Assembly (NCBI GenBank): GCA_030697705.1
Contig: JAUYPE010000017.1
Location: 5,066-69,065, forward strand
DNA from: a bacterium
GTDB taxonomy: Bacteria > Patescibacteriota > Minisyncoccia > Sungbacterales > HO2-52-23
Direction: 5' to 3'
Length of the DNA stretch: 64,000 nucleotides
Position 1 is the first letter of the stretch, and each line of letters starts with the position of its first letter. Made by a program: the position numbers and the translations under genes. Of this stretch, positions 4,887 through 40,756 are shown in pieces. The notes under the pieces were generated by a model that searched no databases, was not told the DNA's origin, and saw nothing but the letters and a program-made list of their open reading frames with translations.

Positions 4887-5083
4887 ATGAAGAAGATGAC
4901 AATAGCCCTTGGATAATAATTTTCGTCGCGAAATTTTATGATTTTGAGTGAGACAAAGTACAATTTCAAAACATATACGCATTATATGTTCAAAAATCCT
5001 TTGCAAAGCTGTTGCAAAGATCCAAAGCTTATACGTGCAGGACAAAGGTTATTACGCAGGGGTACTCCGGTCGTTGATTTATC

Positions 5084-5638
5084 TTAAGCTTTTTTTCGTT
5101 CCCCCCTAAAAAAAGATATGATCACAATAACCATAACCACAACTACCGCGCCCAAGAGAAAAAGGTTGATAATGCGATTTTGTGCGGCGTCAGCTGTTTT
5201 TTCTTCAGCGCCCCCTACGGTCAAGGGGAATGTTGCCTCGGCAAGCGTCTTGCCATCTTTGTCAAAACGCACTTTCATGTTATACAGCCCGCCGTAGGGA
5301 AAGGCAAAAGTCATCCCCGGCGGTACGATAGCGGAGTCTGACCCAACAATCCCCACATCAAGAACGGGCGGCATGTAGTTTGCATTCGTACCGGTTGATG
5401 TAATCGTCACCCAGACATCATCCACCGCAAGTGCTGTGGAGCGGTCTTTAGTGAAAAGCTGGAAAGCGAACTGTACGGGGGTTCCCAGAAAAATACCGCC
5501 CGTCGCATCGTAGTCCACATTGGCAATGTATTCACCAGCCGGCTTATCAAGCTGAATACCGAATCCGTTTGCCAGCACGTCTCCGACTGGCATAAAGATA
5601 AAAAGAGAAATAAAAAAAATAAAGGTGAAATATCTCAT
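5084..5638 (-). CDS. secreted Ig-like protein with C-terminal TM anchor, hypothetical (copper cluster neighbour)
   Basis: Signal peptide, beta-rich core, C-terminal hydrophobic helix followed by RGERKKA. Confidence 0.5.
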   Translation of the reverse strand: MRYFTFIFFISLFIFMPVGDVLANGFGIQLDKPAGEYIANVDYDATGGIFLGTPVQFAFQLFTKDRSTALAVDDVWVTITSTGTNANYMPPVLDVGIVGSDSAIVPPGMTFAFPYGGLYNMKVRFDKDGKTLAEATFPLTVGGAEEKTADAAQNRIINLFLLGAVVVVMVIVIISFFRGERKKA

Positions 5639-9774: not shown

Positions 9775-11229
9775 TTACTCCTTTTCCAGATCAAGCACCT
9801 CGTCAATACGGATTTTGGCGACGAATTCCGGCACGTGACTCACGAGAATCATTGCGCCTTCGTAGCGATTCAGTGCCTCGGCAATGACGGGAATGTGGCG
9901 GAAGTTCATGTGGTTCGTTGGCTCGTCAAGCATAAGGAGTCCGGGGCGTTGCAGAACCAGACGCGCAAAGGTGACAAGCCCTTTCTGCCCTTCCGAGAGA
10001 GCGCCGATTTTCGTGCGAATCATATCGGCGGTGATGAGAAATCCTGCCGCTGCGCTGCGCATCTCTTCCTCAACTGGAGCCGCCATCGCCCCCATGAGCG
10101 TGTCGTGCACTGTATCGTCAAAGTTAAGCGTTGAAAAATCCTGGCGGTAGTAGCCCACGCGCGTACCCTCGGTGATACGACTACCCTTAGCTATGCCTTT
10201 GGCAATTGATTCCAATAGCGTAGACTTCCCGATGCCATTTTGCCCTTTCAACAAAAGATGCTGGCGGCGCTTGAGCGAGATAGCAACAGTTTTTTTGACG
10301 GGCTTATGGTTTTTGATAATAGAAAATGAAGTGATGCCGACGATTTCACCGATACTGTCCTCTTGTGCCGGAATAGTGAATCGCCGAATCGCACGGTCTT
10401 CCTTGCGCACCACCACCTTCTCCTCCTCAAGCTCCGCCGCCTCCTCGCGCATGCGCTTCGCCACCAGGCGCATCTGCCCGCCCTTAAACGCAAACCGGTT
10501 CGCCTTGTCTTTATTCTCCTGAATTTTTTTAGCAAGTTGGGCGTTGGCGCGGTTCTCCTTTTCTATCCGCGCGGTAATTTGCGCCACGACGTCAAAATAA
10601 TTTCCCGCATAGTGCTCCAGCCGCTGGGTGAAAGCATCAAGATACAGCACGCCTTCAGTAAACGCGTTCAAAAAATCGGCATCATGCGAAATGACCATGC
10701 AGGTCTTGGGATAGTCAATGAGGAATTGCCGCAGATGCGCGATACCCGCCGCATCAAGATTGTTTGTTGGCTCGTCAAGAAGTAATACGTCCGGCTCCTG
10801 GATAAGCGCGGAAGCAAGAAGTAAACGCGCCTGCTGTCCTCCGGAGAACGACGAAATCAATCGGTCATGCGGTGCGTGGAGATTCATCACCTCAAGCACC
10901 GCATCAATTTTCGGATCAATATCATATACTTTTTTGCTGAAGCATTTTTCAAAAAACCCCTGCACGGTGAGATTCAGTTCTCCGCGCGGCATTGCTTGGC
11001 GCGCCGTTGCAATAGTAAGCCCGCGGGGAATATTAATAGACCCTTCATCAGGTTTTAACACACCGGTTATCAGCCCGAAAAGCGTGCTCTTGCCGGCACC
11101 GTTCTGCCCCATGACGGCAAACTTCGCGCCCTGTCGCAGAGCAAAACTCCCCTCTTTCATGATGAGTTTTTTCGGCCCGTATTCAAATGAAACCGCGTCA
11201 AACCGCACGACGACATCTCCCTGCGACAT
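9775..11229 (-). CDS. ABC-F family ATPase (two ABC domains, no TM domain)
   Basis: Two Walker A motifs (GQNGAGKST, GQNGIGKST) and two LSGGQ-like signatures (SGGQQARL, SEGQKGLV). Confidence 0.85.
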   Translation of the reverse strand: MSQGDVVVRFDAVSFEYGPKKLIMKEGSFALRQGAKFAVMGQNGAGKSTLFGLITGVLKPDEGSINIPRGLTIATARQAMPRGELNLTVQGFFEKCFSKKVYDIDPKIDAVLEVMNLHAPHDRLISSFSGGQQARLLLASALIQEPDVLLLDEPTNNLDAAGIAHLRQFLIDYPKTCMVISHDADFLNAFTEGVLYLDAFTQRLEHYAGNYFDVVAQITARIEKENRANAQLAKKIQENKDKANRFAFKGGQMRLVAKRMREEAAELEEEKVVVRKEDRAIRRFTIPAQEDSIGEIVGITSFSIIKNHKPVKKTVAISLKRRQHLLLKGQNGIGKSTLLESIAKGIAKGSRITEGTRVGYYRQDFSTLNFDDTVHDTLMGAMAAPVEEEMRSAAAGFLITADMIRTKIGALSEGQKGLVTFARLVLQRPGLLMLDEPTNHMNFRHIPVIAEALNRYEGAMILVSHVPEFVAKIRIDEVLDLEKE

Positions 11230-26465: not shown

Positions 26466-26491
26466 TTATGTTTGAAGTAAAGAAAGTAAAC

Positions 26492-26533
26492 AAAAAAGGT
26501 CGCCTCGTCCAAGGTGACCTTTTTTGTTTTTGT
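26492..26533. terminator. bidirectional rho-independent terminator (downstream of rpoD and of gene 25788..26303)
   Basis: AAAAAA ggtcgcc tcgtccaa ggtgacc TTTTTTGTTTTT. Confidence 0.6.
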
Positions 26534-27815: not shown

Positions 27816-29597
27816 TTATGAGCTTAATGCGCGAAGGAGTTCCGAAGTATTTTTAAATTCGCCGAGCAGTGTGGCAACATCCTCGCGGTTCCCCTTGCCC
27901 TCCTGTTCATGGATGCGTCCCGCGAGCGCACCCAGCCGCTCTTTGGCACCCTCTTTCTCCAACTCGCGCCGGCAGAGTGCAAGCTCAACCGCGAGATCTT
28001 TGTCTTTCGCCATCTCGGCGATTGCGTCTCCCTTAAATTGCAAAATAGCAAGCGCATTCGACGGAGCTCCCTCGCTCCCCTCTTGCGGTGATGCACCGAC
28101 ATCGGTGAGGAGATGGAAAATTTCCTTATGCCTAGGCGAGAAGAGTGAAATAGTCTCACCCGCACTCGCCTCGGCCGTCCGCACCGCCGGATCCATCAGC
28201 GAAAGAAGTGCTAAATAACGCTCTTCCAACAAAGCGCGCCGACCCGAAACCGGCTTCACCGGCTCGTTCGCCGCGGGAGCTTGTTCCATCGGTCTGTTTG
28301 TCTCAATAGGCGTTCGCCGCTCCAGCTCTTTGCGAATCGCCTCTTCCGGCACAATCAAACGCCGCGAGAGCTCTCCTATCCAATGCGCCCGCTCTACCTC
28401 GTCGGTCAGCTCGCGAAGAAACGGCAGAAGCAGAGCGGTAATCGCTTTCTTGCCCGAGGCGGTCGCCGGATTCTCCCGCGCAAAAGCCCGTTCCGTATAA
28501 AACTCAACCACGGGCTTAGCTGTCTCAACCGCGCGCGCCCATGCCGCCGGGTCTTCCCGCACGGTGTCGGCAGGGTCATTCCCCGAGGGAATATGCGCCA
28601 CACGGCGGTCAAAGTCAAACTGCGCCGCAAGCGCGAGCGACCGCCTCGTCGCCGACTCCCCCGCCCCGTCCGCATCAAACGAACACACCAGCGTCTCGGC
28701 AAGACGTCGCAGAATCTTTAGTTGCTGGACCGTCAGCGCGGTGCCGGATACGGCGACGGTGTGGGTCACTCCCGCCTGGTGCGACATCACGCAGTCCATG
28801 TAGCCCTCCACAATGACGGCGGTATTTTTTTTGCGAATCTCTTGGCGCGCACGGTCAAAACCATAGAGCACGGATGATTTATCATAGAGCGGCGTCTGCG
28901 GCGTATTAATGTACTTTCCGCCCGAGGCGGACCCGCCTTGGGCGGGTGCTTTTGGATCTTCAAATATCCTGCCGCCGAATCCGATGACCTTCCCGCTCGG
29001 GTCGGCGATTGGGAACATGATTCTGCTTCTGAAGCGGTCGTACCACGAGCCGCGCTCCGGTGACTTTATCGCCAGTCCCGCCTTCCCAATTTCTTCCTGC
29101 GTGAATCCTTTTGTCCCAAGGGCGCGGGAGAGCGTCTCCCAGCTCTGCGGCGCAAAGCCGATGCGAAAGTTTTTGATCGTTTCGGGTGTAAGACCGCGTT
29201 CAGACAAATAGTTCTGAACATCGGATGCTCGCCCAAGTTCGATGATAAAAAACTGCGCCGCACTTTCGCAGAGAGCTCCCAGCCGCCCGCGCTCGGAGCG
29301 TGCCTGCGGATTCTCGCGGCGGATGATGACGCCCGTGCGCTCCGCAAGAAGGTTTAATACCTCGGGAAAACTATGCCCCTCCATTTCCATTAAAAATTGA
29401 AAAACATCCCCCCCTTTTCCGCATCCGAAGCAATGCCAGCTCGCCCGCGCGGGCGAGACGAAAAACGACGGCGTTTTTTCTCCGTGGAAGGGGCAGTTCG
29501 CCTTGTAGTTCACCCCGGCTTTTTGCAACCGCACATACGACTGGATGAACTCCACGATATCAAGCCGTGCTTTGATTTCTTCCGCTGGTGTGGGCAT
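27816..29597 (-). CDS. dnaG: DNA primase DnaG
   Basis: Zinc-binding [23 protein letters not shown] region ([16 protein letters not shown]). Conserved dnaG-rpoD gene order. Confidence 0.9.
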
Positions 29598-29623
29598 AGG
29601 GAAAGTGAGATATTGCCTCCATT

Positions 29624-30994
29624 CTATCCTCTTTCCCCGCCTTTTTCAATCAATTGCTCAACCTTTTGTTTTGCTTCTTCCAGAAGCTCTTTTGCTTTTA
29701 TGCGCGCCTCATGCGATTGCCTCACCAATTCAGCGATTTTTTGTTGAGCCGCTCTTGGTAAAATGGGAATAAGAATATCTTTTATACTCTCTTTTGGTAC
29801 GGCGGTGAGAATAGTGCCAGCACAGCGTTGTGTAAGCTGATTTTGCACAATGAAACTTTTTGCAATAACAAGCAGAACTTCCGGCAGAACTTCATCGCTT
29901 CTGAATTGAAAAAATCCGGTTGATGCCAGATACCCCTCTTGCTCTTGAGTGACAAGAGCAACTTTTCCCAGTGAACCCTCAACACTAGAGACGATTACAT
30001 CGCCCGCTTTCAATACTCTTTTTGCTCTGCTTGGAGCTTCTTTTCCTAAAACTTTCGTAAAGCCGTCAATTGTCCCGATAGCAGAATTAATATTGGAAAG
30101 CTCAACATAGTTAAAAGATTTATCGGGTTGCACCAGTGTATTAAACTTTGCAAGTACATTATCAAATACTTCCTCCAGCGAACTTGCTTTGTCTGACCTT
30201 AGTTTTGCAAGGAGTTTTTTATATTTCGGTTGAAAGTATTCAGCATCCATCCGGTGTGCATTCTCTATGTCCGAGAAATTGATAATGCTGTACAAATCCC
30301 CATCCGTCGTGAAATCCTTTAACCCCAGCTCCTCCAAAAGCAACTGTTCGGCTTGAGTGTAAAGAGATTTTGAATTCTCTAATTCATGGAGAAAATATTT
30401 GTATGTATCCCCTATTTGTTGTGTTACTTTCTGATCAAAAATAGGGATTTTGAACTTTTTAATCTGTCCAAGAAAGATATTTGCCTGAACGCTACTTACT
30501 ATCTCTCGTTGTGTTTGTAGTAAACCATATTTTGAATTGAGAAATGCGGTCAGATAATAAGGTGACATGGTGTCAAGCGGAGTAATTTTAGCGATAGCTT
30601 GATTGGCATTCGCGCTTCGTGGAAGGTTATGTGCTATTGCCGCGTTTCCGATTGTTCCCGCCATAGTGAGTAAAACTTGACCATTGTTGACTTTTGATTT
30701 TTTTAATATCTCATTAACTTTCTCGCTGATGTACTTTACACTGCTCAAATCAATATATCCGTCATGAACATCACCCACATTTATGTATGGTACGCCTGAC
30801 TCTTGCCATTCAATATGACTAGTAAGCGAGTACGCCCCAAAACTGATAACCGATTTTGAAATTTGCTCTAAGGTTTTTGTTTCTAGCATGGTAAATTTTT
30901 GCTCCAAAGCCAAATACTCCGGCTGATAATACTCCGCATCCAGCCGGTGCGCTCCCTCAAGTTGCGATTTTTGGATTATAGAGAAAGTTGCCAT
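29624..30994 (-). CDS. hsdS: restriction-modification specificity (S) subunit with two target-recognition domains
   Basis: Two TRDs, each followed by the conserved helical spacer (IPIFDQKVTQQIGD..; IPILPRAAQQKIAELV..). Start at MATFSII (ORF track 31102 would overlap upstream gene). Confidence 0.75.
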   Translation of the reverse strand: MATFSIIQKSQLEGAHRLDAEYYQPEYLALEQKFTMLETKTLEQISKSVISFGAYSLTSHIEWQESGVPYINVGDVHDGYIDLSSVKYISEKVNEILKKSKVNNGQVLLTMAGTIGNAAIAHNLPRSANANQAIAKITPLDTMSPYYLTAFLNSKYGLLQTQREIVSSVQANIFLGQIKKFKIPIFDQKVTQQIGDTYKYFLHELENSKSLYTQAEQLLLEELGLKDFTTDGDLYSIINFSDIENAHRMDAEYFQPKYKKLLAKLRSDKASSLEEVFDNVLAKFNTLVQPDKSFNYVELSNINSAIGTIDGFTKVLGKEAPSRAKRVLKAGDVIVSSVEGSLGKVALVTQEQEGYLASTGFFQFRSDEVLPEVLLVIAKSFIVQNQLTQRCAGTILTAVPKESIKDILIPILPRAAQQKIAELVRQSHEARIKAKELLEEAKQKVEQLIEKGGERG

Positions 30995-31079
30995 ACATGT
31001 GTGGATAACCCAGTATTGTTGAGTTTTTGTTGGTAGTGTGCTATGTTTAACTTGGTATATCGGAAGAGGGCGTCGACCG

Positions 31080-31889
31080 TTAGGACGATGGCCCTTTTTC
31101 ATTTGTCTCTAGGGATATAGGCAATCTTTGTTGTATGTCACCATCTACAAAGATATTGAATTTATAGTTTTTAAATCCTTGCGTAAAGTCAGAAACGCCC
31201 ACATTCTTCTTAAAATGTTCAAGAAATCTTCGTTTATATTTATCACCGCGCTGAATCATTCCGGTCTTAAATTTCAAGTCATACGATATCGCTCCAATCA
31301 TAAGATCAGCGATTTGAAGCAGATCATTTGATTTTGAGTCAAAACGCGCCACTCCTGCGATGGATAAGCGACTAAGAGCATCATTGATTTTTCTTTTCAC
31401 ATTCACTTCAAATTTTACATCACGAGGTACTGTTACATGATCAGCAATGACGATTGCGATTTCATTTTGCGCGATATTTGACTTGATAAGCCGAATGGTT
31501 ATATCCTCATACGCTTGCCAAGGATTGCCACCAAATTCCCTCTGAAAATAATTCCCTTGTTTATCAAGTGTATATGAGCAGAAATTGAATCCTTCCGTAG
31601 CAAAAAAAGCGTTTATGGCAAAGACAGCGAAATTAAAATTTTTGTCCGAGAGCTTGTTAAATTTAAGCTCATCATAAAATTGTCGTTTGCTCCTCTCATA
31701 AACGGTCTTGCTTTGAAGATAGTATGGCTGTGAGCATTTGATAGCGCCCACGGTAAAAAACGCCTCCGTCCGATTACTCAAACTTCCGCTCTCATCAAGG
31801 AAAAAGAACTTTGACCAGATGCTTTTATAATCGGCGAGCGCAAGATCTCCTCCTTTCTTATCTTTATGAAAAATTTTATCAAACATCAT
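31080..31889 (-). CDS. DUF3800 family protein inserted between the methyltransferase and S-subunit genes
   Basis: N-terminal FLDESG motif and C-terminal LLQIADLMIGAI motif, characteristic of DUF3800 as I recall it. Confidence 0.55.
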   Translation of the reverse strand: MMFDKIFHKDKKGGDLALADYKSIWSKFFFLDESGSLSNRTEAFFTVGAIKCSQPYYLQSKTVYERSKRQFYDELKFNKLSDKNFNFAVFAINAFFATEGFNFCSYTLDKQGNYFQREFGGNPWQAYEDITIRLIKSNIAQNEIAIVIADHVTVPRDVKFEVNVKRKINDALSRLSIAGVARFDSKSNDLLQIADLMIGAISYDLKFKTGMIQRGDKYKRRFLEHFKKNVGVSDFTQGFKNYKFNIFVDGDIQQRLPISLETNEKGPSS

Positions 31890-31899
31890 GATAGTGCAG

Positions 31900-33852
31900 T
31901 CAAAAACTAAACTTTTGCTCTTTTATAAACTTTAAAAATCCGTCGGCGATGTTGTCCAAGTCGCTGTCTAGTATCTTCTTGCCCCTTCCGTCATGAGCGT
32001 AATTTCCAATTGCGTCTTTCTTGTACATATAATCGCCGGAGTTGTCTTTGCCGCCCTTTTTAGACACAGCCATAAAAATCGGATAGTCCTTTTGCGGCTC
32101 ACCAGCTTCTCCGCCCCATTTCTGCAAAAACAGCACGCTCGTTTTTGTGCCGGTGTGAGGCTTGAATGTATTGCCGTGCAATCCGACCACAGCCAGTATC
32201 CGCGCCTTGTCAAAAAGATACTCGCGGATACTCTCCATATTGGTGTTATTAAGCACGCCCTGCGGAAGCACGATTGCCATTCTGCCGCCCGGGCGGATCA
32301 TATCAAGCGTGCGTTCAATGAAAAGAATATGCCGCTCGGCTTTGTTTACCAGTTTGCCTTTTTTCTTGCCGAAAAAATACTGGCGCAAGATGCCATGGTC
32401 TTTAATCTCGCCCGCAAACGGAGGATTGGTGAGCAGTATGTCAAAATTGAGATAGTGAAATGTTTTTTTATTTTCTTCATTGTCTGCGGTGGAGCCCATA
32501 TCAAACAATCTTTTCTGGAGTTCTGATCGCGCATAAAGCAGATGGCCGTCTTCTCCCTGCCATTCTCGGGAATCAAGGGAGTTGAGCTTAAACAGATGCG
32601 ATCTGCCATCTCCGGCGATAAGCATAAGCGCGCGGGATGTTTTGGAAATTTCGTCCGCAAAATCAATACCCCAGATATTTTTTTGAGCATATTCGCGCAT
32701 CGCCTCATCCGAGCCGCGCAAGTGCCTATCCTTGACGGAATACATCGCGCTGATGAGAAATCCGCCGGAGCCAGCCGCCGGATCTATGACATATTCGTCC
32801 GGTTTAGGATCAAGCATTTTGACGGCCATATTGATGACATGGCGCGGGGTGAAATACTGACCTTTCTTGCCTTTGGCAACTTCGGGTATGAGGTACTCAA
32901 ATGCCTCGTCAATGATTGAGAGATCGGAGCCGAACAGACGGGTTCGTTCAAGCTCTCCGACTACAACGGAAAGATGATCGGGAGACAAGCTGATGTTTTC
33001 CTGCTCGTAGAATGTGCCGGGCCATTTTTTGATAGCTTTTTTAAACAGGTCGTTGATGGTGTTGTATGTTTTTCCCGGATCGCGATATTTGCGAAAAAAG
33101 ATTTCTTTGTCCGGACGCACAAGCGCCTCCGACTCATCATAGAGCTTGGCGTACACAAGTTTGAACACCTCATTGAAAACATCAACGCCCGCGTTTGCAA
33201 GGACAAGCTCCTGCATGGAGTCAATGACTTCTTTGAGATTGATTTTCGTGTTTGTATGTTCAAAGTAGGTTTTCTTTGCTTCCAGAAGGTCATCAATGGT
33301 CTGATCCGATCTCGGAAGATCGGGAAGAGTGTCATTGAACTCGCGTGGGTAAAAACGATACAAGATGACGCGCTTGATGCCGTTTCCCCATACACCAATC
33401 TCCGCGCCCTCGGCGTTTAAATAACCTTTCATCTGCTCAATGCCTTTGCTCTCGGTGGGCGCTTTTACCTCCACAAGAATATAGGGGGTGATTTTGTCCG
33501 GCTTATAAACAACGATATCAACGGCTTTACTGTGAATTTCACGCCCGAAATGAATATCTTTTTCCGTATCCATTCGGTCAAACGGATAGTGATAGTGCTT
33601 ATTGAGCTTAGAGAGCCAAAGTTGGCGGACGATTTCTTCCGGCTTGCCGGTATTTTTCTTTTCATCAAAAACGAACCGAAGCTTGCCCGACTTCAAATCT
33701 TTAATGTAATAACGATCTTTTTCTTCTTCGGTAATGTGTAAAACATCATGAATAGCAATTCCCTCAAACTCTCTCAAGCCAAATGCCATTTCAGAGTCCC
33801 TGAAAATCTTTGTGATAATCTCTTCTGTTCTGTTTGGTTTTTTGGTGGGCAT
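31900..33852 (-). CDS. hsdM: N6-adenine DNA methyltransferase subunit with N-terminal PD-(D/E)xK nuclease-like (HsdR_N-type) domain; either type I HsdM fusion or type IIB (BcgI-like) A subunit
   Basis: MTase motif I VIDPAAGSGGFL and motif IV NPPF (LLTNPPFAG). N-terminal DIVVYKPD ... ILVEVKAP fits a restriction-endonuclease fold. No separate hsdR gene in the window. Confidence 0.75.
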   Translation of the reverse strand: MPTKKPNRTEEIITKIFRDSEMAFGLREFEGIAIHDVLHITEEEKDRYYIKDLKSGKLRFVFDEKKNTGKPEEIVRQLWLSKLNKHYHYPFDRMDTEKDIHFGREIHSKAVDIVVYKPDKITPYILVEVKAPTESKGIEQMKGYLNAEGAEIGVWGNGIKRVILYRFYPREFNDTLPDLPRSDQTIDDLLEAKKTYFEHTNTKINLKEVIDSMQELVLANAGVDVFNEVFKLVYAKLYDESEALVRPDKEIFFRKYRDPGKTYNTINDLFKKAIKKWPGTFYEQENISLSPDHLSVVVGELERTRLFGSDLSIIDEAFEYLIPEVAKGKKGQYFTPRHVINMAVKMLDPKPDEYVIDPAAGSGGFLISAMYSVKDRHLRGSDEAMREYAQKNIWGIDFADEISKTSRALMLIAGDGRSHLFKLNSLDSREWQGEDGHLLYARSELQKRLFDMGSTADNEENKKTFHYLNFDILLTNPPFAGEIKDHGILRQYFFGKKKGKLVNKAERHILFIERTLDMIRPGGRMAIVLPQGVLNNTNMESIREYLFDKARILAVVGLHGNTFKPHTGTKTSVLFLQKWGGEAGEPQKDYPIFMAVSKKGGKDNSGDYMYKKDAIGNYAHDGRGKKILDSDLDNIADGFLKFIKEQKFSF

Positions 33853-33855
33853 AGA

Positions 33856-34500
33856 TTATTTTATTGGTTTCCAGTAGTTGTTCTTTAAAACCGAAACCAC
33901 TTTACCTTTGAGCTCTACATCATCAGTAAAAAGGATATTATTATATTTTGGATTTTCCGGTTTGAGATACACATACGGGGGCTTATCATCAGACATAAAT
34001 CGTTTTATCGTACTGTCATCCCCGATCTGCGCATAGACAATCTCACCCGATATAAACTCTTTCTTTGTTTGCACTAAGACAGCATCACCATCATCAATGC
34101 CTGCGTTGATCATAGAATCGCCTAAAACTTTAAGAATGAATAGATCCTCATCCAAGCGAGAAATCTCCTTTGAGAGCGTTTTCCATTCTCCGGAAATCTC
34201 AAACGATTGAATGGGAGTGCCCGCGCTCGTAACTCCAAGGAACGCCGCGAGAGGCGGTTGGTCAAGGACATTATACCCTGTCCGTAATATGGCAAGCCCG
34301 CGCGCCGCCGTCTCATTGCGCCTTATCAATCCCGCTCGCTTGAGTTTCTCTAAAAGGTCCATCACCGACTGATTGGAAGAAACGCCAAGACGCTCCCGCA
34401 TCTCTTCAAATGTGGGTGGGTATCCCGTATCTCTCGTGTACTCGTATATAATACTTAAGAGCTCTTTTTGCCTCTTGGTAATGATCTTCTCCATCACCAT
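33856..34500 (-). CDS. lexA: LexA-family repressor (winged-helix DNA-binding domain plus S24 peptidase)
   Basis: N-terminal LTKRQKELL..GYPPTFEEM..LG..S...V..HL..L.RAGLI. C-terminal LKVLGDSMINAGIDDGDAVLV with catalytic Ser, and Lys in IKRF. Confidence 0.8.
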   Translation of the reverse strand: MVMEKIITKRQKELLSIIYEYTRDTGYPPTFEEMRERLGVSSNQSVMDLLEKLKRAGLIRRNETAARGLAILRTGYNVLDQPPLAAFLGVTSAGTPIQSFEISGEWKTLSKEISRLDEDLFILKVLGDSMINAGIDDGDAVLVQTKKEFISGEIVYAQIGDDSTIKRFMSDDKPPYVYLKPENPKYNNILFTDDVELKGKVVSVLKNNYWKPIK

Positions 34501-34509
34501 TAGTGTACC

Positions 34510-34523
34510 CGACCATATGTTCT
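34510..34523. promoter_or_regulatory. candidate LexA (Cheo-type) operator immediately upstream of lexA
   Basis: cgaccatatgttct matches CGAACRNRYGTTCG at 12/14 positions. It sits 10 nt upstream of the lexA start. Confidence 0.4.
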
Positions 34524-34783
34524 GGATGCAAATAGATGTCTGTGGATAAGTTCCACATAAGTTCGGAAGAAAATGGCGTTAGAATTTCCAATCAAGTAGT
34601 TGGCGAAGGTGAACGAGCCGCTGGAATTATTCACTGCAATGATTGTCATGAATAAGGCGTTGGTGGTATTCTTAACCGAGAGGCGGTAGTTCTCTTTATA
34701 TCGTATCGCCTGTGAAGTAAAGAAATAAAAGGTCGAAACATGTTATCTGCATTATAAACTTTACCGTAATTCTAGAACAAATC

Positions 34784-35671
34784 ATGAAAAAAATAATTAT
34801 CAGCTTGAGTGTGATCGCGGCGATAGCCGCAGTTGCGGTGGGTGCGACCACGGCGTTCTTCTCGGATACCGAGACCTCGCGAGGCAACACCTTTACCGCA
34901 GGAGCGATTGACTTAAAGATTGACAGCAGATGCCACTGGAGCGGCGGGGACACGGGATCAACGACGTGTCCGTGGGAGAGTGCGAATTGGCAAGAAACCG
35001 ATCTGGGAACTCAGAAATTCTTCAGCTTCAATGATATCAAGCCGGGTGACTGGGGAGAGAACACTATCAGCATCCATGTCCACGACAATGACGCATGGGG
35101 ATCGTGGGGCATTGCAAACGCAACGAGCAGTGAGGGCACTTGCACCGAACCTGAAACGGAAACGCAGGCATTGGGAACTACTCCGTGCGTGGAAAACGCC
35201 ACGCCGGGTCAGCTTAGAGCGGGCATGACCGGTAAGGCGTGGCTTGATCAGGGAAGTACTCCGGGATTTCAGTGCAATGATCCGAATGGTGATACGACAA
35301 CAGCCGGTGCGGGATGCCTTCGTGATCCGTTTGAGGGAGATAATGTGTGGCAACAACAATCTGAACCGGTAATCGCGAGCACTGTGGCTCCCCAGTCATT
35401 CTTTGATGTTTTCACGAATATTGATCTGGCAGGACCCCTTGCGGCAGAGGCGAGCGCAAAATGCGAGGCGGCGGCGGTAGACGGACACGATGACTACGGA
35501 CCATGCCACGGCCTTGCACGGGATGGTCGTTTGGTAGGGAGCGTTACTTATTACATCGGCTGGAAGTGGCATCTTGATCCCAGTACCGGAAATGAAGCGC
35601 AAACCGACACGCTTGGCGGCGATGTGTGGTTTAAAGCCGAACAGCACCGCAATAATCCCGGTCCCACCTAA
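34784..35671 (+). CDS. TasA/camelysin-like (peptidase M73 family) secreted protein with SipW-cognate signal peptide
   Basis: Signal MKKIIISLSVIAAIAAVAVGATTAFFSDTE (TIGR04088-type AFFSDTE motif). Camelysin-like FFSFNDIKPGDWGENTISIHV. Confidence 0.7.
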   Translation: MKKIIISLSVIAAIAAVAVGATTAFFSDTETSRGNTFTAGAIDLKIDSRCHWSGGDTGSTTCPWESANWQETDLGTQKFFSFNDIKPGDWGENTISIHVHDNDAWGSWGIANATSSEGTCTEPETETQALGTTPCVENATPGQLRAGMTGKAWLDQGSTPGFQCNDPNGDTTTAGAGCLRDPFEGDNVWQQQSEPVIASTVAPQSFFDVFTNIDLAGPLAAEASAKCEAAAVDGHDDYGPCHGLARDGRLVGSVTYYIGWKWHLDPSTGNEAQTDTLGGDVWFKAEQHRNNPGPT

Positions 35672-35742
35672 CGACGATCTTCGTCTTTGACGTAAACTAA
35701 CCTTCTCTTGGTTCTTATCAGAGCGGAGAGAAGATATGTCTC

Positions 35743-36537
35743 ATGAAAAAGATCATTTTTAGTTTGGGCGTGATCGGCGCGGTTGCCGTTATGGCGGTTG
35801 GGGGTACCGTTGCGTTTTTTAACGACACGGAGACCTCACAGGGTAATGTCTTTATAGCCGGATCCGTGGATCTGCAGGTGGACAGCTTCGGCGCGTCTTA
35901 CAATGGCGAGGATATTGAGACGCCCGGCTCGGCGTGGACCTCCCGAAATTTGACGAACCAGAAATTCTTTTCGTTTGACGACATTAAGCCCGGGGACTAT
36001 GGCATGCGTCACATCAGCGTACATGTGGACGGCAATCCTGCGTGGGCGTGCCTCCTCGTAACGAACAAAGAGGACGAAGAGAATGATCTGAACGATGCGG
36101 AGCATGACGCGGGAGATACCACACCGGATAGGGGCGAGCTCTCGCGCTACCTGCATGCCTTCGGCTGGCAGGACGATGACTCTGACGGAAGGTATGATCC
36201 GCACCATGGCGAAAAGGCGCTCAAAATCCACAACGATCCCGATGCGGACTTTAACTCGTTCTTTGATGTCTTCTATGATCTTGACATAGCCGACTCGCAG
36301 TCCAGCACCGATCCGCTTCCGCCAAATGGCCCGGCAACGACGCGCAATATCGCGGTTGCGTGGTGCGCGGGCGTGCAGTCGGTCAATCATCAGACGGGAG
36401 TAATCTCCTGCGACGGCTCCGATGTGCGGGATGATGCGCAGTCCGACTCGTTCAGTGCCGACGTGGTGCTCTACGGAGAACAGGTGCGCAATAATCCGAA
36501 TTTCAGGTGTGCGGACGTCCTCCTGCCTCCGCTCTAA
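35743..36537 (+). CDS. TasA/camelysin-like secreted protein with SipW-cognate signal peptide (paralog)
   Basis: VAFFNDTETSQGN and FFSFDDIKPGDYGMRHISVHV. Confidence 0.7.
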   Translation: MKKIIFSLGVIGAVAVMAVGGTVAFFNDTETSQGNVFIAGSVDLQVDSFGASYNGEDIETPGSAWTSRNLTNQKFFSFDDIKPGDYGMRHISVHVDGNPAWACLLVTNKEDEENDLNDAEHDAGDTTPDRGELSRYLHAFGWQDDDSDGRYDPHHGEKALKIHNDPDADFNSFFDVFYDLDIADSQSSTDPLPPNGPATTRNIAVAWCAGVQSVNHQTGVISCDGSDVRDDAQSDSFSADVVLYGEQVRNNPNFRCADVLLPPL

Positions 36538-36650
36538 TGTTAAGAAGAGTAACTCCACAAGATATGCGCTAAGACCTTTCACTCCCCCTCTCCGCTTGTG
36601 ACGGAGGGAGGGAGCACAGAGAGCTTATCACACAGGAGGTCTTGATTTTT

Positions 36651-37187
36651 ATGGACACAAAAAAAATTGCCATCACCAGTTATTATGTGTTTGTCAGCGT
36701 ACTCGGCATCGTGGGAGTTTTGGTTGTCGTTTCGGCTTTCCCGATTACCGGTAATTTTAAGATTATGGCGGTGTTGTCCGGCTCTATGGAGCCGGCTATT
36801 CGGACCGGCAGTATTGTCGTCGTGCGTCCCAGTACCAGCTATTCCATTGGCAATATTGTTACCTTCACCGGAACAAGTGGGGGGAAAAGCATCCCGATCA
36901 CGCATCGGGTGATGGAAATACGAGTGGATCGGGGCGTGCCTTCATATATAACTAAAGGAGACGCGAATAATGCGCCCGACGCACGGCTCGTTGCGCACCG
37001 AGAGATTATCGGGGGGTTGGTATTTTCTGTTCCCTATCTTGGCTATGGGGTGGAGACCGCGCGAAAGCCCTACGGTCTTGCGGCACTGATTCTGCTTCCC
37101 GCGGCATTGATCATCATTGACCAGGCGGGAAGAATTAAAAAAGAACTTGCCAGGTTACGACGCGAAAAAGAAGAAAAAACCATCTGA
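36651..37187 (+). CDS. sipW: signal peptidase I, SipW (S26B, archaeal/ER-type)
   Basis: LSGSMEP catalytic Ser box and conserved His in ITHRV. AGGAGG Shine-Dalgarno 12 nt upstream of ATG 36651. Confidence 0.75.
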   Translation: MDTKKIAITSYYVFVSVLGIVGVLVVVSAFPITGNFKIMAVLSGSMEPAIRTGSIVVVRPSTSYSIGNIVTFTGTSGGKSIPITHRVMEIRVDRGVPSYITKGDANNAPDARLVAHREIIGGLVFSVPYLGYGVETARKPYGLAALILLPAALIIIDQAGRIKKELARLRREKEEKTI

Positions 37188-37189
37188 AC

Positions 37190-39463
37190 ATGAAAACGAA
37201 AAGTTTTTTTCCAAAAATAACGGCGCTCGCCCTTATCCTCACGCTTAACGCGGGCGGGATTTTGACGGTCGGCTCCACGCTCGCGTTTTTTAACGATGCC
37301 GAGACAGCGGGTGATAGTTTGTTTGTGGCGGGAATACTTAATTTTTCCCTCGCTTCTGATGAATGGACTCCTGTTGATAGTGCCGGGGCGCTCAAATCAG
37401 GAGATATGATAACGCGGCATATGAGCATTCTGGCGGGTGACAGTATTCCCTTTCAATATCGGATCAGAACAATAAAAACATCGGGAGATGATGCGTTTTG
37501 CGGCGCACTGCACATGGTTGCGAGCCGTGGGGCTGTTTCGTTGTATGACGGCGTGCTGATGGATTTTGATCTCACGCCTCCGGTAGAAATTGAGGGAGAC
37601 GGACAGGATGATTGGTCGTTTAAGATGAGTATGCCGACCAGTGCTGGCTCCTTTGTCGGGAAAACATGCGAATTTCGCTTTGTCGTGGACGGATGGCAGG
37701 TGGAGTTTCCCGACGGGACAGGCGGATTCAGCGACCGAGAGGCGCTTGAAAATATTCTTGAGAGCGATGATACGGCTCGAGAAGACGGCGGGCAAAACAT
37801 TTCAGCGCTGGAGGACTCATACGGCGAACAGGAGCATCCGGATGACACGAATGGAACTGCGGGCGACCTGCGGGTAAAATCACAATCGGGCGGGAAGAAT
37901 AAACGCGCCTTCGTCCGCTTTGATTTCCCTTTTCCCGACGGGACGGCAATTCAGTCGGCGGCATTAAAAATGTTCATGGATGATGCGCCTTCCGCGTCGC
38001 GGACGTATGCGGTCGCCCGAACGCTCTCGCCATGGACTGAAGCGAGTATTTCGTGGAACAATCAGCCGGGAACATCCAGTCCCATGAGCGCATCGGCGGT
38101 AACCGGAATTACCGATGATCAATGGCTTGCGTGGGATGTCAAAGATGACGCGAGCGCATTTGTGGCGGGTACGGCTACCAATTATGGATGGACCGTATTT
38201 GACGCGATGGAGAGTTCGGCAACCGCCCGTGAGGGAAAGTTCAGCTCAAGTGAAAATAGCCATCAAGACAAGCGACCGGTGCTGGAGGTCGCATTCAGCG
38301 CACCCCCCGCAACCACATCGCATATCGTCATAAACGAAGTATACGCCGATGTGGGAGACGGAAGGGGTTCCGAAGGGACGAATGAGTGGGTTGAGCTCTA
38401 TAACCCGACGGAGTCGGCTGTTGACATCAAGGATTGGCAGGTGTGCGATGCGGCATCGTGCGATTCGTTTGCAACAACTTCATCCTCAATCATGCTTCCG
38501 AGCCGCGGATTCGCAGTGGTGACGGCTGGTACCTCCACCTGGCAACATTGGGTGCTTCCCGAAGGAGCGATACGGATCGTTCTTGGCGCGAACATCGGCG
38601 GTGGACTCGCAAATCCCGGAGATGCGGTTATTTTGAAGAATGCCTCCAGCGCCGAAATTGACGCGATGAGCTACGGGACCGACACCTCAAAATTAAATCC
38701 TGCAGTTCCCGTTTCAGGCGAGGGCAACTCACTTGCGCGAATCGTAAAGGGATACGACGCAGAATTGGCAAACGACTGGATTATCAATGCGACGGCAAAT
38801 CCGGGAACCAATCCATCCGAGGATGGTACCAGTGAGGTCATGCGCTTCACGAGCCGCGGTAGTGAAGTTGCGGCCGGTGAGAACGGCTTGCCCGCTCTGG
38901 ACACTACGGCGATTCCCGACGAACCGGAAAAACAGATTCTGAAAGAAGAGCCACCGCCTGAAGTTAAGAAGGATGGAGAAGAAACGGAGGACGCCGGGGT
39001 AAGAGATGCGATTAACACCGATGGGGAGCCGGCGTCCTCCCATGCGGCACCAACCGATGGAGATGAATTGCCGCTTATGGTACCGTCAGAAGAAGATCAA
39101 GCAACCACGATGGTGGTTGTTGAATCACACGACGCTGCGACGACAACCTTGTTGATTCTTGAAGGAGAGCTACAATCAACGCCTGTGGAGGAGCGTGTGC
39201 CTGCCGATACAGAGACACCTCACGCCGACGGGACGGAACAAGATATCGTACCGGAACCGGATGGGGTAAATCACAGCAACATGGGTGAGAGTCAAATTTT
39301 ACCTCCGGCGACCATCCCGGAAGTTACGAATGAAAACGCCCTACTGCCAGCGGAAAATAAGCCCGCTGGTGGCGGTGATGGAGGGGGTGATCCGACCACT
39401 CCCGCGGGCGGCGAGGAAGTACCGTTGCCCACACCCATTGCCGACAACGCGGTATTGCAATAA
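37190..39463 (+). CDS. large secreted protein with SipW-cognate signal peptide and a lamin-tail domain (LTD)
   Basis: LAFFNDAETAGD signal motif. LTD-like HIVINEVYADVGDG...NEWVELYNPTESAVDIKDWQV...GDAVILKNASSAEIDAMSYG. Acidic, Pro/Glu-rich C-terminus. Confidence 0.6.
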   Translation: MKTKSFFPKITALALILTLNAGGILTVGSTLAFFNDAETAGDSLFVAGILNFSLASDEWTPVDSAGALKSGDMITRHMSILAGDSIPFQYRIRTIKTSGDDAFCGALHMVASRGAVSLYDGVLMDFDLTPPVEIEGDGQDDWSFKMSMPTSAGSFVGKTCEFRFVVDGWQVEFPDGTGGFSDREALENILESDDTAREDGGQNISALEDSYGEQEHPDDTNGTAGDLRVKSQSGGKNKRAFVRFDFPFPDGTAIQSAALKMFMDDAPSASRTYAVARTLSPWTEASISWNNQPGTSSPMSASAVTGITDDQWLAWDVKDDASAFVAGTATNYGWTVFDAMESSATAREGKFSSSENSHQDKRPVLEVAFSAPPATTSHIVINEVYADVGDGRGSEGTNEWVELYNPTESAVDIKDWQVCDAASCDSFATTSSSIMLPSRGFAVVTAGTSTWQHWVLPEGAIRIVLGANIGGGLANPGDAVILKNASSAEIDAMSYGTDTSKLNPAVPVSGEGNSLARIVKGYDAELANDWIINATANPGTNPSEDGTSEVMRFTSRGSEVAAGENGLPALDTTAIPDEPEKQILKEEPPPEVKKDGEETEDAGVRDAINTDGEPASSHAAPTDGDELPLMVPSEEDQATTMVVVESHDAATTTLLILEGELQSTPVEERVPADTETPHADGTEQDIVPEPDGVNHSNMGESQILPPATIPEVTNENALLPAENKPAGGGDGGGDPTTPAGGEEVPLPTPIADNAVLQ

Positions 39464-39472
39464 AAGAATATA

Positions 39473-40756
39473 ATGCATATTCCGGTTGTCAGCTTTTCGC
39501 TCCTAAAAAAGATTGTGCTCGCGGGCGTTGTGCTTGTGTGTTCATTCGGTTTTCCTTATGCACATGCCGCGAATGATGACCTTGTGGTTGAGTTTGAACA
39601 GACCCCCCTTTTTAACAAGGCGAATTTTCTGCCGGGCGAGATGGTAAGCCGTACCGTGAAGGTAACGAACAATACAGGCGCGTCCCAACAGATTACGACA
39701 GAGGCGATTGCCATAAGCGATCCGCATCATCTGGGCGATGTTTTACGCATAACGGTGAAAGAGGGCGCCATCATGTTTTTTGACGGAACGCTTGCGGAGT
39801 TTTTTGGCAGCGGCGCGCATATGCTCTCCCATCTGGCGGCAGGAGTTGCGACAACCTACACCTACTCGGTTTCGTTTAAGTCCGATGCGGGCAACGCGTA
39901 TCAGGAAGAATCGCTCGGTTTTGATATACTCGTCGGATTTGAGGGCAATGCGGGAGACGGCAATCCTTCTTCACCCGAAGGAGGTGTGACCCCGCAAGGT
40001 GGTGGAGGCACGGGCGGTACAAGTGGTGGAGGTGGTGATTCTGGCGGTCCTCGGGGGCTTACTATTACCGGCGAGCTTGTTCGCGTTGTTGAAATTGGCG
40101 AGACCACTGTGATCATTGAATGGGGCACGAGTTATGAATCCACGAGCCGCGTCGTGTACGGCACGGCGAGCGGATTATTCAATTTTTCCAACACTCCCAA
40201 TTACGGCTACCCACTTTCCACCATTGAATCCGACGCGCCGGCACATCCCAACGGTGTTCTCGCTCACCGCGTCCTCATCAGCGGACTCGTACCGGCAACG
40301 ATCTATTATTTTCGTACGATTTCCCACGCCTCACCCGACACAATCGGTTTTGAACATACTTTTACGACTCTAGGCTCCCGCGACAGTCAAAGCGCGGTCA
40401 TTGCTTCCGGCGGGCGGCTTCCCATATCCTCTTCGGGAGAGGTGCTTGTTTCGGCGGGTGGAGAAAGGAGCGTACAACGGATTGGATCGGGTGCCGAGGT
40501 GAATAATGCTCCCTTTCCTCTCTCTCGCGCTTCAGAAAGTAGCGCAGGCGACACGGGTGTTTCGGAACGCCGGAATGAAAATCTGTTGGAGGATGCTGGC
40601 CGCGCATTCACTCCCCTCCTCGCCGTTCTTTCCGCCGCCCTGCCGTTTGTCGGTAAAGAAGGAGGTCGCATCATGCTTATTGTTCTGATAATCGCTCTGC
40701 TTCTTTCCCTTATCGTCTGGCGCCTCTCTCGCCACAGAAGAAAAAATAAGAAGTAG
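39473..40756 (+). CDS. secreted protein with fibronectin type III-like domain, Gly-rich linker and C-terminal TM anchor
   Basis: Signal peptide. FN3-like LTITGELVRVVEIGETTVIIEWGT...YYFRTIS. C-terminal IMLIVLIIALLLSLIVW + RLSRHRRKNKK. Confidence 0.5.
   Translation: MHIPVVSFSLLKKIVLAGVVLVCSFGFPYAHAANDDLVVEFEQTPLFNKANFLPGEMVSRTVKVTNNTGASQQITTEAIAISDPHHLGDVLRITVKEGAIMFFDGTLAEFFGSGAHMLSHLAAGVATTYTYSVSFKSDAGNAYQEESLGFDILVGFEGNAGDGNPSSPEGGVTPQGGGGTGGTSGGGGDSGGPRGLTITGELVRVVEIGETTVIIEWGTSYESTSRVVYGTASGLFNFSNTPNYGYPLSTIESDAPAHPNGVLAHRVLISGLVPATIYYFRTISHASPDTIGFEHTFTTLGSRDSQSAVIASGGRLPISSSGEVLVSAGGERSVQRIGSGAEVNNAPFPLSRASESSAGDTGVSERRNENLLEDAGRAFTPLLAVLSAALPFVGKEGGRIMLIVLIIALLLSLIVWRLSRHRRKNKK

Follow-up and report, generated by a model that had tools for sequence, protein, structure and literature searches.

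What controls a DUF3800 gene that lies between the methylase (M) and specificity (S) genes of a restriction–modification (RM) operon? Such a gene occurs in the stretch of 64,000 nucleotides (nt) that we analyzed, which is part of contig JAUYPE010000017.1 from a bacterium of the Patescibacteriota and is called the window below. A first-pass annotation of the window had proposed that the encoded protein is, like PrrC, a latent effector held captive by the RM complex. Our analysis points to a different partner. We are highly confident that the gene forms a two-part module with a small RNA (sRNA) that is antisense to the gene's 3′ end and folds into a hairpin. We further propose, with a probability of roughly 0.55, that this module is toxin–antitoxin-like or acts in abortive infection, with the RNA as antidote or regulator of a nuclease.

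A scan of 185,579 species genomes yielded 75 loci with homologues of the gene, including two from Bacteroidota; individual loci are cited by number (e.g., L071). When the 3′ ends of the genes were compared, the apparent C-terminal peptide NEKGPSS proved to correspond to a conserved nucleotide string, AAUGAAAAAGGGCCAUCGUCCUAACGGUCGACGCCCUUUUUCGAUAC. This string is in frame in many loci, but lies wholly past the stop codon in about 20 others, so it is a nucleotide motif and not a protein motif. More generally, what looks like a conserved peptide at a C-terminus can merely reflect an RNA motif. Searched with an nhmmer profile of the hairpin, 65 loci and the window each contain a single copy, which invariably lies at the 3′ end of DUF3800 and has the same orientation. 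A covariance model (R1) adds L071, which brings the hairpin to about 66 of the 68 loci with downstream sequence, and the loci without it are nearly all cut by a contig end. In the window, the predicted sRNA overlaps the last 8 sense codons, and the stop codon of the gene (31080–31082) sits within the hairpin loop. The R1 match at this site is the only specific one in the 64 kb; a second match (26477–26533, 28.9 bits) is a generic rpoD terminator.

The hairpin has the marks of a conserved RNA structure. Among 64 copies, 92.8% of the cells are paired, nine pairs have changes on both sides, and the covariation score was reached by none of 500 shuffles. Shifting the pairing register drops pairing from 93% to 33–69%, and RNAalifold independently predicts the same helix. 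The pattern of mismatches distinguishes the strands. Read on the gene strand, the copies have 55 A·C cells and only 2 G·U cells. The former are G·U pairs when the other strand is read, and pairing is 88.1% in the sense and 93.6% in the antisense direction. In the window, the predicted fold energy is −22.2 kcal/mol on the plus strand (z −3.1) versus −14.0 on the minus strand. This asymmetry, together with the fold energies, argues that the selected RNA is antisense to DUF3800. Sequence is also constrained, in that 16 hairpin columns are invariant across proteins that are just 46–65% identical.

The RNA appears to have its own sigma-70-type promoter. In the window, where we read the hexamers directly from the sequence, the −10 ends 14 nt before the hairpin; a generic promoter scan of the window did not list this copy. 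At the homologous position in 63 loci, the −35 is TTGACA (27 loci) or TTGACT (12) and the −10 is TATACT (19) or TATAAT (15), among other hexamers. The spacer is 16–18 nt, and the −10 ends 11–15 nt ahead of the hairpin in 52 of the 63. At least 10 of the 12 promoter positions match in 40 of the 63 loci, compared with 4% of shuffled controls. The RNA predicted from the promoters of relatives is about 50–55 nt long and consists of a short leader (AGUAUCG), the hairpin and a U-tract.

As a reverse test, we searched metagenome contigs for the exact 20-nt hairpin core, a search that samples only the main hairpin variant. It found at least 120 loci. Among the matches listed that have at least 800 nt of upstream sequence, 77 of 95 have a homologue of the window protein directly upstream. 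Two more loci contain a second DUF3800 subfamily (L081:3248–3976, minus strand, and L124:161–928, plus strand; Pfam E-values of 1e-17 and 5e-16) that escaped a tblastn search with the window protein at E 1e-5. In these two, the same 20-nt core is preceded by an extra GC-rich hairpin, AGAGGGCCCAGGAAAGCCCUAGUCCCUCUU. They bring the listed loci with DUF3800 directly upstream to 79 of 95, and several of the rest are deletion remnants.

The remnants show that the hairpin can outlast the gene. In L092 (motif at 4028, motif-oriented) and L157 (3485), the first ~15 codons (MSFF..NKEIK) are fused to the hairpin. In L095 (10967), the hairpin lies 21 nt past the stop codon of a methylase gene whose product is 85% identical to that of the window, with no open reading frame (ORF) for DUF3800. 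Orphan hairpins were also seen in L140, L136 and L144, where the DUF3800 body is lost and the first ~15 codons and/or the hairpin with its promoter are retained; directly upstream of its hairpin, L144 also has what look like the vestiges of another promoter unit. Of 73 ORFs in the genome loci, 59 are intact; internal disruptions affect 9, all of which still have the hairpin.

Could the hairpin be an ordinary two-way terminator that looks conserved because its gene, which would encode a dispensable, RNase H-like housekeeping enzyme, spread recently? The hairpin is indeed flanked by A and U runs on both sides, and the weak R1 match to the rpoD terminator fits this idea. However, a plain terminator would not explain the 16 invariant columns, the recurrence of the core beside a subfamily that tblastn does not detect, or a dedicated convergent promoter that is conserved. 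The two-sided pair changes and the one-sided G·U pattern also indicate an RNA under selection, and a gene found at only 75 loci in so many species genomes is too sporadic for housekeeping. We therefore regard this explanation as extremely unlikely.

The conservation of the RNA bears on how it might work. Pure antisense pairing would be satisfied by any sequence, so the conservation argues for binding to a protein. Given that the 16 columns are invariant across divergent proteins and that the core also occurs beside the BLAST-undetected subfamily, the protein that recognizes the RNA is most simply DUF3800 itself. We infer that the RNA is the dedicated partner of the nuclease. Another conceivable relationship is that the RNA is a cofactor, guide or substrate of an RNase H-fold protein, for which Argonaute/PIWI, Cas12 and the IS110 bridge RNA provide analogies. 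However, the RNA is almost invariant and has no variable segment that could act as a guide. RNA-only remnants, moreover, are common, which fits an antidote or a decaying locus better. A role as cofactor or guide is accordingly unlikely.

This RNA has no Rfam match in the window at the gathering score, and scans at E ≤ 10 (positions 29000–35000) and at E ≤ 1 (L004, L005 and L057) likewise gave none. The same kind of scan detects the DUF3800-V RNA in L074 (57.7 bits), so the models work. As far as the sequence models can tell, the hairpin RNA is a new motif, set apart from the described DUF3800 RNAs; the comparison uses Rfam models, and a motif described solely in the supplement of the 2017 study that reported those RNAs (see below) may go unmatched. 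The DUF3800-V RNA of L074 (6246–6341, minus strand) lies beside hsdM, and the distant DUF3800 gene there (27% identity) is within a type I RM operon. L074 and L075 have in common a conserved GC-rich stretch right after the DUF3800 stop codon, which has no Rfam match.

Two other properties of the hairpin loop were considered. The loop sequence CCTAAC/GTTAGG resembles the core sites of integron attC elements, but these lie in the loop and not at paired ends, and we rejected this idea. Also, the stop codon UAA is in the loop of the sense hairpin, so a terminating ribosome would melt the 5′ half of the terminator. This could couple translation to read-through into the S gene, but about one third of the relatives end the ORF earlier, so the arrangement is not universal.

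Table 1. Positions in the window of the DUF3800–hairpin module, its host operon and associated sites
Feature	Position	Strand	Properties
DUF3800 gene	31080..31889	-	Intact ORF, 269 amino acids, ATG start; RNase HII/H2/H3-like fold (predicted by fold comparison)
Predicted antisense sRNA, ~50–55 nt	31048..31107	+	Covariance model R1, 70.9 bits, E 4.4e-16
sRNA hairpin, 16 bp, imperfect, GUUA loop	31062-31100	+	Followed by U-tract; 5′ leader GUAUAUC
sRNA sigma-70-type promoter (predicted)	31019..31047	+	−35 TTGAGT 31019-31024, 17-nt spacer, −10 TATGTT 31042-31047
TTATCCACA, identical to the DnaA-box consensus	31000..31008	-	Just past the sRNA −35, 5 nt before the S start
S subunit, 456 amino acids, two target-recognition domains	29624..30994	-	Pfam Methylase_S in two stretches
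Fused restriction/methylase-type subunit, 650 amino acids	31900..33852	-	N-terminal HSDR_N_2 (PD-(D/E)xK-like) and gamma-class N6-adenine methyltransferase
LexA-type repressor, first operon gene	33856..34500	-	Pfam LexA_DNA_bind and Peptidase_S24
Palindromic operator-like site CGACCATATGTTCT (AGAACATATGGTCG on the gene strand)	34510..34523	.	Inverted repeat; 2 mismatches to CGAACN4GTTCG

The protein half of the module was correctly recognized by the first-pass annotation. The gene is a real DUF3800 ORF that follows the methylase ORF (which ends at 31900) after 10 nt and precedes the S gene by 85 nt. The conserved start of the latter is the ATG at 30994 (MATFSII...), since tblastn matches in relatives begin at its residue 1. 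The protein matches Pfam DUF3800 (PF12686) with an E-value of 6.3e-9 and 37.1 bits, versus a cutoff of 21, over positions 1–148 of the 149 in the profile, and PF12686 is also the precomputed domain of all 120 listed homologues. No other Pfam family and no NCBIfam model matches. PADLOC gives the candidate-defense model PDC-M04A (E 6.9e-20) and, more weakly, the retron-type DUF3800_VII (1.2e-5). The FLDESG and LQIADL motifs that the annotation had pointed out are present at residues 30–35 and, as LLQIADL, 190–196. In an alignment of 36 sequences, they contain the invariant residues D32, E33, S34, G35, Q192 and D195, and D150 is invariant as well. Thus, both the N-terminal D-E motif (D32–E33) and the C-terminal QxxD motif (Q192..D195), as quoted by Mestre et al. 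(PMC7736814), are intact.

The annotation suggested a fold comparison, which points to an RNase H-like fold. The predicted catalytic core resembles the RNase H type 2 group (RNase HII/H2/H3), and this comparison alone provides relatives, in that a search of the PDB by sequence with the family profile gave no matches even at E 10. Candidate acidic active-site residues are D32, E33, D150 and D195, together with Q192. Presumably the protein is a metal-dependent nuclease. Related assignments exist for other DUF3800 proteins. Those of type VII retrons have similarity to RNase H2 and a DEED site (PMC7736814), and the Cas12-linked TPR-DUF3800 proteins have an RNase H fold with a catalytic rearrangement (PMC10910872). 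In the searchable literature, we found no experimental work on the function of DUF3800 or a tested mechanism, and nothing usable on PDC-M04, on experiments with type VII retrons or on the function of the drum and skipping-rope RNAs.

We detected 548 homologues of the protein. The top 120 are 60–87% identical to it, and those with a named source are nearly all labelled as Patescibacteria lineages. To describe the contexts of these genes, neighboring ORFs were clustered and annotated with Pfam and custom hidden Markov models; ORFs were called by a longest-ORF heuristic, so intergenic distances are approximate. In 21 of the 75 genome loci, co-stranded RM genes lie no more than 6 kb away, and in 18 they are direct neighbors. 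Among the 120 listed metagenome loci, 33 have RM genes in their flanks, without exception co-stranded; for contigs that reach 4 kb, the count is 23 of 64. Both locus sets thus reproduce an RM association of about 30%, and these fractions are lower bounds because many contigs are short. Three architectures are involved. The first is LexA–M–DUF3800–(0 to 4 genes)–S, as in the window, in about nine loci. In the second, DUF3800 lies between subunit genes of classical hsdM/hsdS/hsdR systems (e.g., L024, L039, L040, L041 and L065), and the third is a type III mod–DUF3800–res arrangement (L018 and L035). This recurrence speaks against the gene being a random passenger beside RM genes, an alternative that the annotation had named.

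On the other hand, about 70% of close homologues (50–65% identical) have no RM neighbor, so linkage to type I RM systems is not obligate. The remaining contexts are of a housekeeping kind, with genes for PBP/MurE, PGK, MurJ/LepA, PolA, SecA, UvrB or NrdD as neighbors. A few loci adjoin genes for serine recombinases, RhuM, NYN or Schlafen-like helicases.

These contexts bear on the PrrC-like arrangement, in which the nuclease would be bound and silenced by the M/S complex and released when a phage inhibits RM. Several facts fit it, namely the position between RM subunit genes on the same strand with tight spacing, the recurrence of RM flanks in both locus sets and the precedent of PrrC in EcoprrI. 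The classical position of prrC is, however, between hsdS and hsdR, and not between hsdM and hsdS. Reviews describe prrC as embedded in the prrABD operon. According to Pfam, the 269-amino-acid protein has no PrrC-like ABC-ATPase or anticodon-nuclease domain. Moreover, the three RM architectures are unrelated, which makes one shared docking partner implausible, and relatives of the host operon have unrelated cargo in the same slot (see below). The partner that is conserved is the RNA, which is kept even where RM genes are absent. Since the RNA is tied to the gene in every context, control by the RNA is likelier than control by RM. Together, these observations make capture by the RM complex very unlikely.

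The contexts also suggest how the module is expressed. The upstream neighbor is co-stranded in 54 of 68 loci and the downstream neighbor in 49 of 56. Ahead of the DUF3800 ATG, where conservation stops, we found neither a promoter nor a motif that is conserved. Given the co-oriented neighbors and the lack of conserved upstream sequence, the DUF3800 gene behaves as a promoterless cassette.

Such a cassette could be a selfish mobile element, in which DUF3800 itself would be the mobility enzyme (similar to a transposase or integrase) and would recognize the hairpin as its end, with no part in defense. The dozens of unrelated contexts and the sharp 5′ boundary at the start codon agree with this idea, as does movement between phyla. 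An intact copy of 261 amino acids, 60% identical to the window protein and with a canonical hairpin, occurs in Mucilaginibacter frigoritolerans ATCC BAA-1854 (L047; NZ_VLLI01000012.1, 181404–202195), which shows transfer between phyla. This copy adjoins three large ORFs on the other strand, and one or more of these encode a serine recombinase. Serine recombinases are neighbors of four copies. Direct repeats of 11–19 nt flank some copies. In L060 (flanks of 10001–10790), a ~19-nt repeat, CAAAAAGTGGCATTATTAG, is the start of the downstream hsdR and also occurs upstream of DUF3800, and in L035 (flanks of 4749–5550), part of the res start is repeated. Direct repeats of at least 11 nt are found in the flanks of 6 of 62 loci, versus 3 of about 307 mismatched controls. 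They may be a trace of the insertion mechanism, but the excess is weak, and too weak to conclude that they are target-site duplications. On balance, we doubt strongly that the module is just a selfish element. An origin as a phage gene was also considered and rejected, because a 23-nt hairpin core had no matches in viral contigs and a phage collection contained only six distant protein matches (24–27% identity), in temperate Mycobacterium and Gordonia phages.

Our preferred model is that the RNA controls the nuclease. The module would be compact and horizontally mobile, with a DUF3800 nuclease and an sRNA of about 50 nt on the opposite strand at the gene's 3′ end. The sRNA would come from its own sigma-70-type promoter, and the hairpin body would double as a two-way terminator. 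The nuclease, lacking its own promoter, would be expressed via read-through from a co-oriented host operon, which in the window is headed by LexA and is probably damage-inducible. As dedicated antidote or regulator, the sRNA might bind the protein, as in type III toxin–antitoxin systems, or might pair with the 3′ end of the nuclease mRNA, like the 3′-overlapping type I antitoxins. A shift in the balance, e.g., by induction of the operon or by loss of a short-lived RNA during infection, would free the nuclease and stop growth. RM operons would be favored landing sites or co-travellers in about 30% of loci, rather than the controlling partner. This model fits the rule that DUF3800 genes accompany structured RNAs, the effector position of DUF3800 in type VII retrons, the decay of the ORF with retention of the RNA, and expression by read-through. 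It predicts a plus-strand RNA of about 50 nt, a protein that is toxic alone, and rescue by the RNA, but not by M and S. The copy in Mucilaginibacter makes these predictions testable in a cultured organism, outside of the uncultured Patescibacteria.

Several points weigh against this model. The searchable literature has no transcript, toxicity, binding or phage data on the DUF3800–hairpin family. The sRNA promoter in the window matches only 8 of 12 positions and is weaker than that of most relatives. With A and U runs on either side, the hairpin would be a two-way terminator regardless of any other role, and a mutation bias could in principle produce the strand asymmetry. Control by antisense pairing alone needs no such sequence conservation, and it is from this conservation alone that we derive protein binding. 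Finally, an RM association of 30%, always between subunit genes, is more than one would obviously expect from simple hitch-hiking, and there may be a functional link.

The host operon in the window is itself unusual. The annotation had likened the flanking genes to hsdM and hsdS; methylase and S domains are indeed present, but the system is not a classical type I system, in that the methylase is fused to an HSDR_N_2 domain and no HsdR-like ORF lies within ~8 kb. The methylase matches Pfam HSDR_N_2 (4.3e-19), N6_Mtase (4.1e-37) and Eco57I (2.1e-11), and its closest solved relative in the PDB is the type IIB enzyme RM.BsaXI (E 2.1e-26). The S subunit matches the PADLOC model Specificity_I (2.1e-43). 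A nuclease domain fused to a gamma N6-methylase, with a separate two-domain S subunit, is the layout of type IIB systems. We considered membership in MADS, for whose model the authors describe mad6, mad7 and mad8 as mandatory. The best NCBIfam models are MAD2 for the methylase, with 304 bits (cutoff 720), and MAD5 for the S subunit, with 172 bits (cutoff 400), and mad6–8 are missing from the flanks, which is the part of the 64 kb that was inspected for them. Membership was therefore rejected. The host system is best described as type IIB- or MADS-like.

The first gene of the operon encodes a LexA-type repressor (NCBIfam TIGR00498, 153 bits versus a cutoff of 111) that ends 3 nt before the methylase start, and LexA directly precedes M in all RM loci of the window-type family that we examined. 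Upstream of lexA, the palindrome AGAACATATGGTCG lies between −35-like and −10-like hexamers. At the same position, 17 related loci have GACnAnnTnGTC, followed by GGTATACT-like hexamers. The region with the palindrome is located at 34505–34550 in the window, and was also seen in L001, L003, L026, L056, L059, L063, L064 and L095, as well as in L116, L117, L151, L168, L197, L199, L201 and L203. We infer that LexA binds this palindrome. The operon, and hence DUF3800, is probably under LexA control and damage-inducible. It would be unusual for RM genes to be under SOS control in an operon whose LexA regulates itself. The −10 of lexA nearly coincides with the start codon, which points to an mRNA without a leader.

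The slot between M and S appears to be a site where cargo is exchanged. The methylase has at least 7999 homologues at E ≤ 1e-50, of which the top 120 are at least 75% identical. The four relatives that we inspected (77–87% identity) all have the order LexA–(small ORF)–M–X–S, where X encodes 123, 281, 209 or 271 amino acids (L196:6960–7331, L198:6948–7793, L200:7107–7736 and L202:5023–5838), and the hairpin is absent from all four of these loci. Further cargo in the gap was found at L001:10949–11743, L026:7788–8414, L003:9736–10708 and L059:10873–13545. The X genes and those that come after DUF3800 in other loci exhibit no relatedness to one another at E 1e-3, and most have no Pfam family; the L059 cargo has weak matches to AbiU2-HEPN, trypsin-like and NYN domains. 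Because relatives have unrelated genes there, the gap is a hypervariable cargo slot, of which the DUF3800 module is the sole occupant in the window. A family of LexA-headed RM operons is thereby documented, with the M–S gap as a swap site for unrelated cargo.

The GC content of the lexA–M–DUF3800–S block (29600–34600) is 0.38–0.48, and is lowest over DUF3800 and S, while that of the flanks is 0.52–0.61. The low GC content suggests that the whole operon was acquired horizontally. The operon is flanked by dnaG/rpoD on one side and by genes for secreted proteins on the other. The latter form a cluster at 34784–40756 on the plus strand, whose predicted products have N-termini that resemble SipW/TasA-type signal peptides (AFFSDTETS, AFFNDTETS or AFFNDAETA). 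Judging by the translations only, the cluster includes a signal-peptidase-like ORF (36642–37187).

We noticed one further element at the end of the module, a 9-mer that is identical to the DnaA-box consensus. Of 176 modules, 58 have a perfect TTATCCACA (0.4% expected), and the number rises to 94 when one mismatch is allowed (2.4% expected). These module copies are found in both orientations and no more than 65 nt past the −35. However, the window as a whole has six copies versus 0.4 expected (20941, 25719, 31000, 34541, 51596 and 58223), all of them outside of the long ORFs that we inspected or at first codons. One copy lies 7 nt before the ORF starting at 51612 and another about 10–25 nt upstream of the lexA −35. 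In relatives, the 9-mer lies beside the sRNA promoter as well as beside lexA promoters, and it can point either way. The idea of a module-specific element is thus upheld only in part, in that the 9-mer is concentrated at the module end but over-represented across the window and at lexA promoters. In these genomes, it may accompany promoters in general.

We now compare the module with known systems. Its host operon resembles the type IIB systems BsaXI and BcgI and the mad1/mad2/mad5 core of MADS in its nuclease–N6-methylase fusion and separate two-domain S subunit. As in MADS, a regulator gene comes first in the operon (LexA here, mad1 there). Unlike MADS, the operon scores far under the MAD2 and MAD5 cutoffs and has no mad6–8 in its flanks. 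With the type IC system EcoprrI, the window shares an accessory nuclease gene inside an RM operon. By contrast with PrrC, the protein belongs to another family, the host has no HsdR, most homologues occur without RM genes, and an RNA partner is conserved.

Systems with RNA antitoxins also offer a parallel. In ToxIN (type III) and in txpA/RatA and bsrG/SR4 (type I), an sRNA adjoins or converges with a harmful gene. As with the DUF3800 module, such type I and type III pairs have a terminator between the two genes, spread horizontally and often lose the protein gene to decay. Unlike that of ToxIN, the window RNA is a single convergent hairpin at the gene's 3′ end, and we found no ToxI-like tandem repeats in positions 29500–34800. 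The predicted toxin also differs, in that it is a soluble protein of 269 amino acids with an RNase H fold and not a small membrane peptide, as in type I systems, or a ToxN-type RNase; its toxicity, like the antidote action of the RNA, is a prediction.

DUF3800 proteins are also found in other immune loci. They are accessories, as TPR-DUF3800, of some Cas12a2/Cas12a3 and VI-F CRISPR loci. These have in common with the window an RNase H-fold domain in an immune locus that makes small RNAs, but the window protein has no TPR, and neither cas genes nor a CRISPR array accompany it. Type VII retrons combine a reverse transcriptase (RT) and msr/msd with DUF3800 in the effector position (Mestre et al. 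2020, PMC7736814). As in the window, a DUF3800/RNase H2-like protein is found with a dedicated structured nucleic acid, which is assumed to be the controller in the retrons. However, no RT adjoins the window gene, whose neighbors are the methylase and S genes, and our Rfam scans of the window found no retron or RT RNA family. In addition, the retron proteins lack the Q of QxxD (PMC7736814), whereas Q192 is invariant in the window family.

The closest comparison is with the eleven structured RNAs that were linked to DUF3800 genes in 2017. To our knowledge, no functional hypothesis has been offered for them since then. Weinberg et al. 2017 (PMC5737381) reported that they associate with DUF3800 genes on either strand and on either side. 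The RNAs (DUF3800-I to -XI), as well as the drum and skipping-rope RNAs, were left without an assigned function, and often end in a terminator (PMC5737381). The hairpin module belongs to this known kind of arrangement, namely a DUF3800 gene beside a conserved, covarying structured RNA, although its RNA is new. If DUF3800 proteins and their diverse partner RNAs were all one widespread class of RNA-controlled, RNase H-fold immune effectors, then the patescibacterial hairpin module would be the simplest member. The RNA would then combine the roles of antidote and sensor, and an infection in which it is lost or titrated away would set the nuclease free. On this view, the repeated position between RM subunit genes would reflect a true second line of defense for when restriction by type I, type IIB-like or type III systems fails. 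We consider so broad a class unlikely.

Regardless, the module in the window is the smallest and most clearly defined case of DUF3800 and RNA so far, in that it comprises a single protein gene and a ~50-nt RNA, and the DNA sequence reveals the strand, promoter, terminator and structure of the latter. Compared with the RNAs of Weinberg et al., the window-type RNA occurs mainly in Patescibacteria, is much smaller, consists of one 16-bp hairpin and has no Rfam match. It also differs from them in always overlapping or abutting the gene's 3′ end, on the opposite strand and with a recognizable promoter.

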